Source of the DNA: an uncultured Bacteroidaceae bacterium
Lineage (GTDB): Bacteria; Bacteroidota; Bacteroidia; Bacteroidales; GCA-2748055
Assembly: GCA_964454295.1 (NCBI GenBank)
Contig: CAYVTV010000002.1
Span: 1 to 53,128 of the forward strand
Direction of reading: 5' to 3'
DNA length: 53,128 bases
The position numbers and the translations under genes are program-made. Positions 19,646-51,673 of the stretch are shown here, piece by piece; the stretch's first letter is position 1; each line of letters starts with the position of its first letter. The notes under the pieces are model-generated. The model was not told the DNA's origin. It worked only from the letters and a program-made list of their open reading frames with translations, and did no database searches.

Positions 19646-19744
19646 CCTTGCACCAAATATTATGACACCCACAATCGGTCTTGTAAGTGTCTGATTTGAT
19701 CAGAAATCCGTCCTTCTTTGACCACTTCAGAAGAAGGTCTGAAA
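19646..19744 (+). repeat. R2 element (copy 1)
   Basis: ..GACACCCACAATCGGTCTTGTAAGTGTCTGATTT..AAATCCGTCCTTCTTTGACCACTTCAGAAGAAGGTCTGAAA. Confidence 0.8.
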
Positions 19745-19890
19745 TAACTTAACAATTAACGAGATAACAAGTATTTACCTCCAATTATAAGGTATTCATA
19801 TTGAAATGGTTATTTATTATTTTGACTCTATTATCCACATTGATATCTGGTTCCATATTTTTTCAGTTTAGTTATAAAGCTTTAGAATAG

Positions 19891-20025
19891 TGCAAAAGCT
19901 GGCGACCCTGACTATCTCTCGCTGGCACAAATTGACCACCCGGGGCCGGAGTTAATTGAACTATAGATAAATATAAAAATATCCAATTTGCCGGCGGAAT
20001 GTGGTCAAGGCGGCCGGCTTATGCA
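19891..20025 (-). mobile_element. R1 MITE-like element, subfamily 2 (copy C)
   Basis: TGCAAAAGCTGG..CTGACTAT..ATTGACCACC..GCCGGCGGAATGTGGTCAAGGCGGCCGGCTTATGCA. This is the inverse arrangement of subfamily 1. Confidence 0.7.
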
Positions 20026-20082
20026 ATCTGGAGGATATGTTTTATTAATAAATTGAAATCAAGACTAAATAAAAGAAAAAAA

Positions 20083-48625: not shown

Positions 48626-48660
48626 TGTCCGTTTTTTAATCCCTTAAACACTGCTTGTTA

Positions 48661-50844
48661 TCATTCAATAGTAAGGTAGGCCCGAACAGAATTTCGTACT
48701 CCCTTTTTTGAAATAAATTCAACATTCAAGGTGAACTTATCAGATCTGTTTGCGGGCAGCTCTGCTTCAAACGGGAAATGACGGGTTTCCGCCACTTTCT
48801 GAAAATCCTTAAACACCTCAATGGCTGCAATATCTTCAGGATTATCTGCAGAAGGCAGGATTTTTATTTTACCTGTTTTTGGAATCCGGAATAATTCATC
48901 ACGCGTTCCTCCTTTGAACATAAAATCGGCAACATCATTGCCGCTGGTAAAGTGCTCTGATTTTTTACCGTCAGCTTCAAGGGTGAAAGATAGATTTCTG
49001 AGCACCCCCGGCTCGTCCTTGCCGGGGATCCTGTGAACAATCATCCGGTTCAGGGTTCCATTCGCTTCAGCTTTCCCGCCGGGTTCTGCCAGCTGTATAG
49101 TCAGCTGTTGCGGACCACGGGGAAGCCTTAGCATTTCACTCATTGAGGAATACTCCTGTGCAATCAGCAAGCGAGCCGTATCATATTCTGTAAAGATTAA
49201 GTATTCAGCAGGAGGATTATCGGGTTTGAAATCATAAAAAAGCTCTACTCTGTAATCTCCTGTTTCCACAATATCAATATTGAATACCATTAAACTTCCG
49301 GGTGTTGTCCAGCCATTAAAACGGGTGTCTGACTGCCCGTTTTTCCTTACGGTTCCTCCCAGTTCAACATACGCGTCAAGATTTACCGGGGTTCCTCTCT
49401 CTTCCCAGTTACCTGTCTCGTACACTGCCTGCCTGTATGACCTGCCTCCGGCAATTATACCTGTAAACCAGTTGTCTATCGAGAGCTTCAGTTTGCTGAG
49501 CAATTCAGGATATTTTGCGGCAACATCTTCTTTTTCAAACGGATCAGAATCAAGATCATAAAGCTCATATTCAACGGTATCTTTTCCGTAATGGAACCTG
49601 TCAGTACGTATCAGTTTGAAATTCCTGTGGTGAACAGATATTTCACGTACCCTGGGATGGCTTATGTTGATACTTTCACGTGGTATACGGTAAAAATTGG
49701 TATTGTCAAAATAACACCTCTCATCCCAATCCTGAGGTTCTCTACCCTGAAGTAACGGCCACAGACTTTTTCCTGCTACCGGCAAATTGTTTTCCGGTAA
49801 TTTAACACCGCATGCTTCGAGGATTGTAGGGTAAATATCTATTACTCCTGAAAGGTGACTGAATTTCTTTCCTGCTTCAATTTTATCCTTCCACATAATG
49901 TAAAACGGAGATATGGAGCCCCCTTCATATATTGATGCCTTGCCTCCTCTCAGCACCCTGTTCCAGGCTCTTGTCCGCTCAGCTGTCTCAATCTCATTCA
50001 TCCTGCGGTTGGAATATGAAAGGTCAAAACCCGGTGATGGACCGTCGTCAGACATAAACATTATCATGGTCTTCTCTTCAAGTCCTTCCTCTTTTATCGC
50101 ATCGAGGATTTTTCCGATATTTTTATCAACCAGCTCGATCATTCCGTATAACCGTGCCACATGATCGCTATAATTTCTCTGTTTGTATTTCTGAAACAGA
50201 TCCGCCGGACAATTGAAGGGTTCATGTACCGATTGTATTGGTAAGTAGGCAAAAAAGGGCTTTTTCGTGTTCTGTCCGATAAATCTTACGACCTCATCAC
50301 CAAGGACATCCTCAACCGGCCCGTCGGTATTGACAAGCTTGTTGTTAAAAATGAGTCTTGAATCCAAATATTTGTACAAGACGGGATGGATTCCGATATC
50401 AAAACCACGGTTCCAGGAAAAATAAGACCAGGTTTTGCCGCTGTGCCATTTACCGAAAGCACCAGTAGTATATCCGGCTGTTTTTAGAGCATCTGCAATG
50501 GTGGTTTCATCACGGTGAATAAAATCACGGCCGTTATGAACATCCCATACCCCGGTTTCGAGATGGTAACGGCCCGTAAGAAGTGAAGCTCTTGTGGGAG
50601 CCGAAGCAGCAGAACTTTGATAGAATCTTGTGAATCTTGCTCCACCTTCGGCAATACGGTCAATATTGGGAGTTCTGATCTGGGTATTACCCTCAAAACT
50701 TATATCACCATAACCAAAATCGTCAATAATGAAAAGTATCACATTCGGCTTCCCATTATCTGAGACGGATTGATGGTGATCAGATCCGCATCCTGTCATC
50801 TGTGGTGCCATCAGGCATAATAAGGATATCGCACTTTTATTCAT
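48661..50844 (-). CDS. Sulfatase, Ser-type (S1 family), lipoprotein with ~250-aa C-terminal extension
   Basis: NVILFIIDDFGYGDISFEGN and the formylglycine motif with Ser: SAASAPTRASLLTGRY. Lipobox MTGC. The C-terminal third looks beta-rich and CBM-like. Confidence 0.85.
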   Translation of the reverse strand: MNKSAISLLCLMAPQMTGCGSDHHQSVSDNGKPNVILFIIDDFGYGDISFEGNTQIRTPNIDRIAEGGARFTRFYQSSAASAPTRASLLTGRYHLETGVWDVHNGRDFIHRDETTIADALKTAGYTTGAFGKWHSGKTWSYFSWNRGFDIGIHPVLYKYLDSRLIFNNKLVNTDGPVEDVLGDEVVRFIGQNTKKPFFAYLPIQSVHEPFNCPADLFQKYKQRNYSDHVARLYGMIELVDKNIGKILDAIKEEGLEEKTMIMFMSDDGPSPGFDLSYSNRRMNEIETAERTRAWNRVLRGGKASIYEGGSISPFYIMWKDKIEAGKKFSHLSGVIDIYPTILEACGVKLPENNLPVAGKSLWPLLQGREPQDWDERCYFDNTNFYRIPRESINISHPRVREISVHHRNFKLIRTDRFHYGKDTVEYELYDLDSDPFEKEDVAAKYPELLSKLKLSIDNWFTGIIAGGRSYRQAVYETGNWEERGTPVNLDAYVELGGTVRKNGQSDTRFNGWTTPGSLMVFNIDIVETGDYRVELFYDFKPDNPPAEYLIFTEYDTARLLIAQEYSSMSEMLRLPRGPQQLTIQLAEPGGKAEANGTLNRMIVHRIPGKDEPGVLRNLSFTLEADGKKSEHFTSGNDVADFMFKGGTRDELFRIPKTGKIKILPSADNPEDIAAIEVFKDFQKVAETRHFPFEAELPANRSDKFTLNVEFISKKGVRNSVRAYLTIE

Positions 50845-51566
50845 TTGCAGAAAGATTGTTTAATCCCCTAATCGGATAGAATAATACATGAGCTTACTAT
50901 ATGACAAAAAATTCTAATCAATAGAATATTAATATGTTATGTTGTATTGCTAATAACAATTTGTCAGTTTATTTAAAGAAACCGTGATAATCAACAAATA
51001 AAAATAATACTCCCAATGCTGTTTCTAAGATTGGATACCAAGGTCGAAATTAAAGTTACAATAATATCAGATACTTTGAAAAAGTACTTTGATGTTGAAC
51101 TCATCCTGGCTCATATCAATTCCTTTAGATTGATTATCTTAATAACTAAACATTGAGTATTATATTCGAATATGTGAGAACTTTCAGATTGAGATTCCTC
51201 GCAACGATTACAATTGAAGCTTCGAGGTTGATCAAATATGGTCTTAATTATATTACCAACTTGCTTTTTTGCAATGATATAGATAAATTTAACCAATGTT
51301 GCAAATTTTACTCATGTACATTTTGAAAATAATTAAATTATCAACTCTTAAATAATTTTGTTCAACTAACAATAATCGAATTTACACCCATGAATGGTCA
51401 TTGTACTCAATATTCTAATCGTAAAGTACTGTAACAGATTGAAGCCAGGCTCGCTGCAATATATCCTAAACAGCCATTTGATAATTTTGTACCGAATCTG
51501 ATAATTAATGGATCAGTTTAAGACAATTATAGCAAAATATCTTTATAAAAAATCCCATTTTCACCC

Positions 51567-51673
51567 AAACCCAGGCCCCAACCCAACCAAAAAGACACCC
51601 ACAATTGGTCTTGTAAGTGTCTGATTTTAAGAAATCCGTCTTTCTTTGACTACTTCAAAAGAAGATCTGGAAA
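51567..51673 (+). repeat. R2 element (copy 11)
   Basis: AAACCCAGGCCCCAACCCAACCAAAAAGACACCCACAATTGGTCTTGTAAGTGTCTGATTTTAAGAAATCCGTCTTTCTTTGACTACTTCAAAAGAAGATCTGGAAA. Confidence 0.8.

Follow-up and report, generated by a model that had tools for sequence, protein, structure and literature searches.

R2, a one-way repeat at the borders of shuffled gene blocks in Bacteroidales, probably serves as the end module of IS200-like RAYT elements

We analyzed a stretch of 53,128 nucleotides (nt) from an uncultured Bacteroidaceae bacterium (contig CAYVTV010000002.1), which we call the window. Its GC content is about 40%, and its coding content is typical of Bacteroidota: glycoside hydrolases, sulfatases, Fib_succ_major lipoproteins, and TPR proteins. 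It also carries many copies of R2, a repeat of about 100 nt that is clustered in variable DNA. Our subject is R2 and the RAYT-like transposase gene that it flanks in other genomes. Labels such as L069 refer to the comparison loci of this analysis.

The window contains 11 copies of R2, and all of them are on the plus strand. A search with the 41-nt core (AAATCCGTCCTTCTTTGACCACTTCAGAAGAAGGTCTGAAA) that allowed up to 3 mismatches gave 6 matches, on the plus strand only, where shuffled sequences are expected to give 0; looser matching and a repeat finder brought the count to 11. A profile hidden Markov model (HMM) built on 114 copies recovered the same 11 on the plus strand (E = 1e-12 to 1e-20), while the minus strand of the window had no match even at E ≤ 10. 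The model also gave one further plus-strand match, weak and partial, at 41648-41682. The copies are as follows:

19646..19781, plus strand: R2 copy 1, with an upstream hairpin block (19653-19700), the core (19704-19744), and then the conserved right-hand leader; nhmmer match at 19696-19781, E = 7e-19
22692..22802, plus strand: R2 copy 2, core 22723-22763; E = 2e-20
32045..32190, plus strand: R2 copy 3, with a CTGGC..CCGAA block, an upstream hairpin block (32074-32121), and the core (32126-32166); E = 6e-13
32521..32632, plus strand: R2 copy 4, core 32563-32603, with an element of a second repeat, R1, directly on its left; E = 1e-18
34602..34821, plus strand: R2 copy 5, a long form, with CCTGGCACCAAAC repeats, an upstream hairpin block (34704-34751), and the core (34756-34796); E = 3e-12
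35385..35462, plus strand: R2 copy 6, core 35391-35431; E = 5e-17
35901..35989, plus strand: R2 copy 7, core 35916-35956; E = 2e-14
36114..36194, plus strand: R2 copy 8, core 36122-36162; E = 5e-12
38724..38848, plus strand: R2 copy 9, with CCTGGCGCCAAAC, an upstream hairpin block (38754-38801), and the core (38804-38844); E = 6e-14
47717..47921, plus strand: R2 copy 10, with an upstream hairpin block (47802-47849) and the core (47857-47897); E = 9e-14
51549..51711, plus strand: R2 copy 11, with an upstream hairpin block (51583-51630), the core (51632-51672), and then an inverted TGGTCAA motif; E = 9e-17

An initial annotation of this DNA had reported 11 copies of R2, all on one strand, and matching, the repeat finder, and the HMM all agree with this. 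Two of the positions that it gave (35391 and 36121) are the core itself; the others are mostly the starts of upstream extensions, 0-140 nt to the left of the core. The upstream sequence that it described as usual, a AAAAAGACACC..CAATTGGTCTT..AAGTGTCTGATTTT block, precedes the core in 6 of the 11 copies, and CTGGCACCAAA-type sequence is present in 4 or 5 of them. The CTGGCACCAAA(C)TGGCACCAAAAAA motif, which may be a third small repeat, is found apart from R2 as well, at 4796-4853, 28199-28235, and 30855-30912. Copies 7 and 8 are separated by a 206-nt interval of conserved non-coding filling: at 35957-36121, about 135 nt of non-coding sequence are conserved in at least 8 other genomes (L110, L066, L085, L010, L091, L034, L058, and L030). 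We found no convincing consensus RNA structure for this filling (-2 kcal/mol).

An R2 module consists, in order, of an optional terminator-like hairpin, AAAATCCGTCCTTCTTTGACCACTTC, a variable heptamer, GGTCTGA, and a leader of about 45 nt. When 114 copies from many genomes are aligned, each position of AAAATCCGTCCTTCTTTGACCACTTC is over 90% conserved. The variable stretch of about 7 nt may be AAAAGAA, AGAAGAA, AAATCCG, or AAAGACG, among others, and the leader that follows GGTCTGA reads ..(A)AACAC TTAACATACAT .. AAACAACAAGGATTTAACTC. The window shares a lineage-typical variant, CAGAAGAAGG, with its closest relatives (L047, L064, and L069).

The core can form a hairpin with a stem of 7 bp (CCTTCTT/AAGAAGG) and a loop of 12 nt; the foot reads ..ATCCGT just before CCTTCTT, and no GTAG is found there. 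In at least 72 species-level genomes, conservation of the 5' arm and the loop exceeds 90%, and 86% of the cells for the helix in the 114-copy alignment are paired. The initial annotation had noted that compensatory changes were not convincing and that variants mostly weaken the hairpin. Both points hold in the larger alignment: there are 0 double-sided changes, pairing is no better than in column shuffles, and the 3' arm is unable to pair in about 15-25% of copies. Folding a full copy of R2, on either strand, gave energies no better than those of shuffles (z = -0.7 and -1.7). The fold is two short separate hairpins, and the ends of R2 do not pair with each other. We conclude that the constraint on R2 is on blocks of sequence rather than on structure, and the shuffle z-scores and the zero covariation rule out an RNA or DNA hairpin as its conserved feature.

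These results bear on whether R2 might be a transcribed regulatory RNA, a terminator, or a promoter module whose direction is held by selection; a transcribed element was among the options in the initial annotation. Read on the minus strand, the upstream block is a 12-bp hairpin followed by TTTTT, and the leader contains a TAnnTTTG-like box, which we take to match the Bacteroidetes -7 element. Also, about 22 genes of a TIR-like/TPR family (see below) have their stop codon 84-160 nt from an R2 and run into its reverse complement. However, a search of the window against Rfam 15 at the gathering threshold gave 0 matches, and over 34500-39100, R2 had none even at E ≤ 1, so R2 is not an Rfam family that we could recognize, and a terminator scan did not flag R2, which led us to reject an intrinsic terminator. 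Along with the fold energies, the lack of covariation, and the lack of an overall relation to neighboring genes, this makes a regulatory module barely credible.

R2 is widespread in Bacteroidales. The 21-mer AAATCCGTCCTTCTTTGACCA occurs exactly in at least 118 8-kb blocks of a collection of species-representative genomes, which correspond to at least 72 assemblies by accession prefix. Nearly all of these are metagenome-assembled genomes (MAGs) of Bacteroidales, Bacteroidia, or Rikenellaceae from soil, peat, fen, and sediment. A few R2 contigs are filed under MAGs of Ignavibacteria, Terriglobia, Cloacimonadota, Bathyarchaeia, Gammaproteobacteria, or Clostridia (L023, L031, L041, L053, L082, L084, L099, and L104), and the Terriglobia-labeled copy is at the end of a 2.2-Mb contig. 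The odd phylum labels are probably due to mis-binning or chimeric assembly at the repeat, with horizontal spread as the alternative.

Across these genomes, R2 copies that are near each other point the same way. The window and the 8-kb loci contain 226 core matches, and each of the 57 loci with more than one copy has a single direction. Counting with the HMM, we found 317 copies in 125 sequences, 0 of which had copies on both strands, and all 192 pairs of neighboring copies had the same direction, with no flips. The densest arrays have 12 co-oriented copies in 20 kb (CAVVBY010000007.1), 11 in 24 kb (CAVRYU010000003.1), and 9 in 31 kb (CAVTAA010000008.1). On one contig, copies that are 570 kb apart have the same direction; CAWBNA010000022.1 is the only contig with multiple blocks that has opposite copies, 32 kb apart. 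This suggests that polarity is a property of each local array. Several genomes have clusters of R2 on separate contigs. The median spacing is 1.4 kb, and three-quarters of the spacings are 0.6-3 kb, or about one gene per R2, with some intervals of up to 9 kb. Just one of the 226 copies lies inside a long open reading frame (ORF).

When we clustered all of the ORFs from the R2 loci, one recurrent family, with proteins of about 186 amino acids (range 186-195), turned out to be a RAYT-like Y1 HUH protein. Among the matches listed, it is the only recurrent recombinase-like family in R2 loci. It matches REP_Tyr_transpos from NCBIfam with E = 2e-13 to 4e-8, which is below the curated cutoff, and Y1_Tnp from Pfam weakly, also below threshold. 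The protein database contains more than 1,250 homologues, and JGI names them "REP element-mobilizing transposase RayT." The proteins diverge by 15-40%; the H-x-H motif (MPNHIHG) is invariant, and SWQ and RKYIxNNP (N = Y+4) are nearly so. The AlphaFold model has a pLDDT of 49 overall and of 61-76 over residues 30-105. In a fold search against PDB (Foldseek), the 29 best matches were all IS200/IS605 transposases (probability 1.0), including ISDra2, IS608, IS200, and one from Sulfolobus, with a root mean square deviation of about 1.9 Å over 68 residues. The REP-associated transposase of E. coli (4ER8) ranked 32nd. Sequence and profile searches against PDB chains found nothing, and a plasmid collection contained no R2-RAYT unit, just distant homologues of RAYT (33-38% identity).

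The RAYT gene contains an in-frame perfect palindrome, GTAGGGGCGTTGCATGCAACGCCCCTAC, that encodes ..VGALHATP.. and is repeated 2-3 times in some homologues. The loci that bear it are as follows:

L010: RAYT genes with the palindrome at 6386 and 7096
L080: at 2301 and 3009
L122: at 10319
L123: at 5571
L124: at 10292
L125-L244: metagenome loci

Within R2-bearing loci, this GTAG palindrome is confined to the RAYT gene, so we rejected it as a dispersed partner there. The identical 28-mer is also scattered between genes, as a REP, in many unrelated metagenome contigs that differ in GC content (87 of 123 matches), none of which have R2. An in-frame, double-foot GTAG palindrome is a hallmark of RAYT subclass 2.4 (PMC6006769), and the motifs, the length, and the palindrome of our family all agree with that subclass. 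The same study describes a Bacteroidetes subclass, 2.6, whose RAYTs have flanking secondary structures that are atypical and lack GTAG, so Bacteroidetes RAYTs with odd flanking structures are already on record.

In the RAYT unit, R2 is followed by 146-153 nt, the RAYT gene, and a second R2, with the modules and the gene all in one direction. The initial annotation had proposed looking for Y1 transposase or RAYT genes flanked by R2 cores, and every sample that we drew contained them. First, in loci selected for R2 (L009, two units in L010, L044, two units in L080, L083, L023, and L058), one core precedes the ATG by about 140 nt, and another follows the stop codon by 10-30 nt. Second, loci selected by protein (L122-L124) have the same co-oriented R2-RAYT-R2 pattern. 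In L122, a lone RAYT gene stands amid housekeeping genes, and the only two R2 copies in 20 kb both flank it; the left end of this unit has a CCTGGCG…AAAAAAGACAC…GTGTTTGATTTT block, as is found upstream of the long R2 copies of the window. Third, we drew a sample without reference to R2 by probing metagenome contigs with the intragenic palindrome. This gave 37 RAYT loci, 28 of them with R2, and 70 R2 copies were on the strand of the gene versus 0 on the opposite strand. In this sample, 146-153 nt separate the upstream R2 from the start of the gene, and the downstream R2 follows the end of the gene at +2 or +95 nt.

The unit is about 710 bp long, and there are runs of R2 copies spaced at 707-711 bp. 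The conserved leader of R2 is the 5' leader of RAYT, and the RAYT gene ends, on its 3' side, with the GTCTGATTTT that adjoins the core on the left. This arrangement is that of IS200-type ends, not the inverted geometry of REPs or REPINs.

Most R2 copies, including all 11 in the window, separate single cargo genes and have no adjoining transposase. In the window, the segments between R2 copies have their best matches in different genomes:

31176-32065: segment shared with L047 (86%)
32737-33434: segment shared with L064 (92%)
34849-35446: segment shared with L071 (90%)
35485-35987: segment shared with L086 (84%)
45051-47637: segment shared with L069 (97.6%)
45042..47897, no strand assigned: shared cargo block with a 171-amino-acid ORF and an aldehyde dehydrogenase, running from an R1 element to an R2 core, with unrelated DNA outside both ends

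The homology with L047 stops at 32065, within R2 copy 3; the block to the left of copy 6, which is 90% to L071, ends inside the core; the block to the left of copy 7 is 84% to L086; and copy 10 is the right edge of the 97.6% block that the window has in common with L069. More broadly, in pairwise alignments, homology extends into the R2 core and then ends, and breakpoints are concentrated at the core. Of 220 high-scoring segment pairs between loci (300 bp or longer, with 80% identity or more), 31 begin and end in R2 zones and 59 others have one end there, even though these zones amount to just 5.2% of the sequence. Besides the RAYT units, six R2-bounded cargo blocks of 0.65-1.7 kb (88-97% identity) have different neighbors in different loci. 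Thus, R2 is found at the edges of gene-sized blocks that are exchanged among genomes, and a gene together with one R2 acts much like a cassette, which recurs elsewhere beside other neighbors. We also searched for filled and empty sites (60-250 nt and 250-8000 nt) and found no clean R2 pair, which led us to reject R2 as a classical MITE with insertion polymorphism.

Variants within R2 indicate where the switch from one flank to the other takes place. Rare variants of the heptamer (+25..+32) go with the left flank in 4 cases, versus none among pairs that share the right flank, and positions +33..+44 go with the right flank in 3 of 15 cases, versus a baseline of 2.8%. In the window/L069 and L010/L080 pairs, the switch is between +32 and +35.

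Given the geometry of the RAYT unit and these breakpoints, we think that R2 serves as the end module in a family of IS200-like RAYT elements and in their head-to-tail, cargo-bearing derivatives; we put the probability of this at roughly 0.6. We infer that RAYT acts on R2, as well as the cleavage point and a cycle of excision and insertion. The RAYT transposase would be supplied in trans and would cut a single strand near core position +33, where the hairpin of R2 has its 3' foot; the excised units would then be rejoined beside another R2. Head-to-tail joining on one strand would leave all copies in an array co-oriented, regardless of the direction of the cargo genes.

Several observations weigh against this explanation. 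The junction is not perfectly fixed, as the switch is near +25 in the L034/L123 and L058/L123 pairs. Some borders are not at R2: a block with a GDSL gene stops at the edges of the gene, and the L069 block has an R1 element on its left side. The sole clean-looking presence/absence of a cassette (L118 versus L099) lacks tidy borders that run from R2 to R2. Not every copy can form the hairpin, given the 3' arms that do not pair (such as AATCCGG and AAGACGG). There is no RAYT gene in the 53-kb window, so any action there must be in trans or in the past. Finally, this subclass of RAYT usually partners with the GTAG palindrome, which R2 does not have, and RAYT could be a mere passenger at a fixed position.

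Some of these points would fit an explanation in which R2 is just portable homology. RecA-dependent recombination would occur between co-oriented copies, inverted copies would be purged by selection (through inversions), and RAYT would be uninvolved or would be an ancient seeder of the repeat. The universally conserved part of R2 (about 45-95 nt) suffices for occasional homologous exchange; the switch point does vary between pairs of loci (about +25 versus about +33); the window does not contain RAYT; and the lineage-typical variant CAGAAGAAGG fits gene conversion. However, shared homology does not explain how there came to be about one R2 per gene, why the 5' part of 30 nt is nearly invariant in at least 72 species while RAYT itself diverges by 15-40%, or why RAYT lies at fixed distances between two R2 modules. 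Also, the informative variants favor a switch near +33 over a switch anywhere in the module. We consider homologous recombination without RAYT to be unlikely.

If RAYT elements do end in R2, then the arrays might have a broader function. Tentatively, R2 and RAYT might form an integron-like cassette platform that is run by an HUH single-strand nuclease. A cassette would be one cargo gene that ends in an R2 hairpin, and cuts at the 3' feet of two adjacent hairpins would release a single-stranded circle that could be re-inserted next to any R2. The resulting head-to-tail arrays would store accessory genes and exchange them among environmental Bacteroidales. This is possible but doubtful.

We then asked how R2 relates to the genes around it. 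The directions of the ORFs on its left and right were ++ in 45 cases, +- in 46, -+ in 34, and -- in 31. As all four combinations are common, we rejected the idea that flanking genes set the direction of R2. The initial annotation had likewise seen no consistent relation to the direction of genes; this is correct overall, but particular families do keep a fixed direction. Of the 54 genes of the TIR-like/transmembrane/TPR family, 52 run antiparallel to R2. Found in 37 of the 118 loci, this family is the commonest cargo of R2 arrays. Its members have the N-terminus YDIFISYRQKD (with just a weak match to FxsC_Nterm from NCBIfam), a membrane segment, and TPR repeats, and the family had no match in PADLOC. 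In the window, the copy that lies within the array is as follows:

36350..38566, minus strand: TIR-like/transmembrane/TPR gene between R2 copies 8 and 9, antiparallel to R2

The family is also present in the window at 1880-3922 (minus strand), with a truncated copy at about 1270-1860. A fixed direction for each family is expected if a gene and its R2 travel as one unit. This fixed direction, the polarity at the level of arrays, and the role of R2 as the border of shuffled blocks had all been overlooked in the initial annotation.

Next, we used GC skew as a proxy for the direction of replication. In the orientation of R2, the skew averaged -0.0085 ± 0.0045 across 76 8-kb blocks (43 negative and 32 positive), and among 17 contigs or loci of 12-53 kb, it was negative for 9 and positive for 8. 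The R2 strand of the window is C-rich throughout (skew of -0.033); several long arrays are the opposite, and in CAWBNA010000022.1, the plus-strand copy of R2 is in G-rich DNA, opposite to the window. We saw no convincing relation between the direction of R2 and GC skew. The initial annotation had proposed strand-specific transposition of single-stranded DNA, tied to the direction of replication. The link to a RAYT supports the first part; the skews and the opposite copies 32 kb apart give no support to the second. A polar chromosomal motif, which it also suggested, is unlikely for an element of about 100 nt that is clustered in variable DNA and has no relation to skew.

The skew data also bear on whether R2 copies are small non-autonomous elements of the IS200/IS605 type (similar to PATEs) that insert singly at the replication fork, with one direction per replichore and with arrays due to local hopping. 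The associated enzyme has the fold of the IS200/IS605 TnpA, and insertions of IS200/IS605 are oriented by the direction of replication (PMC6006769, PMC5027513). The C-rich plus strand of the window and the constant direction of R2 over 570 kb of one contig are consistent with this. However, the evenly divided skews of the longer contigs, the small average for the 8-kb blocks, and the opposite copies of CAWBNA010000022.1, with the plus copy in G-rich DNA, are not. Single insertions should also leave gene order intact, with the element present or absent. Instead, homology breaks at R2, and the search for filled and empty sites found no pair with a small R2 insertion. Single insertion at the fork seems improbable.

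The layout of the arrays, with co-oriented sites and about one gene per site, might instead suggest a system similar to integrons, in which an unsampled tyrosine recombinase uses R2 as its recombination site. The cargo is diverse and includes a toxin-antitoxin pair, and GC content is low and patchy. Furthermore, R2 has a variable stretch of about 7 nt between conserved arms, and ACTTAACATA may be similar to the XerD arm of dif and to an R box of attC. However, there is no integrase in the window, among the recurrent families of the 118 loci (although the ends of the arrays are mostly unsampled), or among the matches listed from a Pfam scan of 140 representative ORFs. Nor does R2 form a single long imperfect palindrome in which R''/R' boxes pair, and the cargo genes point in both directions. 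As we found no integrase and no attC-type palindrome, we rejected an attC site, a dif site, or another site for a tyrosine recombinase, and we view this kind of system as very improbable.

If R2 and RAYT do belong to one element family, as we favor, then how does this family compare to known systems? It resembles the REPtrons of subclass 2.4, or Bertels group 4 (the Bacteroidetes subclass is 2.6; Quentin et al. 2018, PMC6006769), in having a Y1 HUH enzyme of the RAYT clade with the motifs N/DH-I-H, WQ, and YIxNNP. As in a REPtron, the gene is flanked by a repeat with many extragenic copies: up to 12 R2 per 20 kb, in several clusters per genome. In contrast to a REPtron, the flanking copies of R2 are direct rather than inverted, they do not have a 5' GTAG, and the hairpin is weak and lacks covariation. 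Also, descriptions of REPs, BIMEs, and REPINs, whose typical form is the inverted pair, do not mention co-oriented arrays with one-gene intervals that bound shuffled blocks. CGTC-tagged REPs, which were reported in Bacteroidetes, have stems of 8-9 bp, loops of 4-5 nt, and a CCA tail, occur mostly as head-to-head dimers, and were reported to lack a linked transposase (Di Nocera et al. 2013, PMC3733652). R2 does have CGTC at the 5' foot of its stem, but its stem is 7 bp, its loop is 12 nt, it has no CCA tail, it is arranged head-to-tail only, and it is linked to RAYT.

Of the known systems, R2 comes closest to IS200/IS605 ends in how it works and to integron cassettes in the layout of its arrays. 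Like members of the IS200/IS605 family, the R2-RAYT unit encodes a protein with the TnpA fold, is about 710 bp long, and has similar structures on the same strand at both ends, with the junction apparently 3' of the end hairpin. The R2 cores are direct and lie at fixed distances on both sides of the gene. Members of the IS200/IS605 family insert 3' of a specific tetra- or pentanucleotide and do not duplicate the target; for R2, variant linkage places the junction at about +33. At its left end, the unit has a terminator-like hairpin; IS200 has such a hairpin at its left end as well. Unlike IS200, the transposase belongs to the RAYT clade rather than to TnpA_IS200, adjacent units share a single end module, and cargo mostly takes the place of the transposase. 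Also, the bias in orientation with respect to replication, which is known for IS608 and ISDra2, was not detected for R2 with the GC-skew proxy.

As in integrons and CALINs, the arrays are co-oriented, with about 1-2 genes per unit and mixed accessory cargo (including a toxin-antitoxin pair); the same cassette is found in different arrays, and each cassette has its own fixed gene direction. On the other hand, we found no IntI, our candidate for the enzyme is an HUH nuclease, not a tyrosine recombinase, the cargo of R2 faces both ways about equally, and some intervals are 9 kb. An attC site is an imperfect palindrome of 57-141 nt with R'' (RYYYAAC) and R' (GTTRRRY) boxes, whereas R2 has two short hairpins and not the attC architecture. 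A literature search for the sequence of the R2 core found no paper, and a search for cassette arrays linked to HUH enzymes found no matching description.

The window has a second repeat, R1, which is about 145 nt long and is REPIN- or MITE-like, with terminal inverted repeats of about 35 nt (TGCAAAAGCCGG..TTGACCAC..CCGG). Its copies are at these positions:

R1 copies, all scoring far better on the plus strand than on the minus strand (11 of 11): 7854-7999, 18789-18935, 19886-20029, 22886-23034, 25312-25457, 28362-28445, 30581-30727, 32371-32517, 38894-39035, 42293-42404, and 45042-45188

Elsewhere, 37 copies of R1 have the same direction as R2 and 10 do not. The terminal repeat of R1 can be aligned to the R2 core (AAAnCCG..TTGACCAC.TTCA), so R1 and R2 look related. 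About 17% of R2 copies have an inverted GTGGTCAA..ATGGTCAAGG..GGCTTTTCCA end, 85-110 nt past the start of the core, that is like the right end of R1. We found these inverted ends in L001, L007, L018, L033, L055, L062, and other loci and at the 51632 copy in the window (TGGTCAA at about 51718). There may be a REPIN-like long form of R2, of about 170 nt, with imperfect inverted ends.

Other features of the window are near R2. A toxin-antitoxin pair (31311-31968), an MNT/HepT nucleotidyltransferase and ribonuclease, is just to the left of R2 copy 3; when we ran PADLOC on the cargo of the window, the MNT protein alone had a match (candidate system PDC-S09). The segments at 33457-34570 and 42976-44084 are duplicates, with 71-89% identity, that encode paralogous ORFs of 291-292 amino acids without a match to any family; one of these segments adjoins an R2, and the other does not. 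Relative to the block in L069, which is otherwise 97.6% identical, the window has an additional 173 bp at 47630-47802, bounded by TGGCGCCAAA. The GC content is 33-35% at 32000-36000 and at 42000-46000, as compared to 40-46% in the glycoside-hydrolase operon at 10-18 kb; the low GC content of the R2 region fits with acquired accessory DNA. Past the right end of the window, a short contig that includes its last genes (L120) has an IS3-family transposase (HTH_Tnp_1 and rve) at 1977-3088, which follows a 90-amino-acid ORF equivalent to 52700-52972 of the window.

R2 lies between nearly all genes of the variable regions. Even on a cautious reading, R2 is a useful marker for hypervariable regions of accessory genes in MAGs of Bacteroidales from soil, peat, and sediment, and it accounts for the breaks in assemblies there. 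It is also a concrete candidate substrate for in vitro studies of RAYT. The known partners of RAYTs are inverted pairs of REPs that are scattered across the genome, and to our knowledge, the role of RAYTs in their hosts is unclear. We know of no evidence that integrons are a feature of Bacteroidota. If RAYT does cut and join DNA at R2, this would be a second route to cassette arrays, mechanistically distinct from integrons. And if R2 and RAYT are indeed a platform for cassettes, this would give a RAYT its first clear cellular role and substrate logic beyond the spread of REPs and REPINs.

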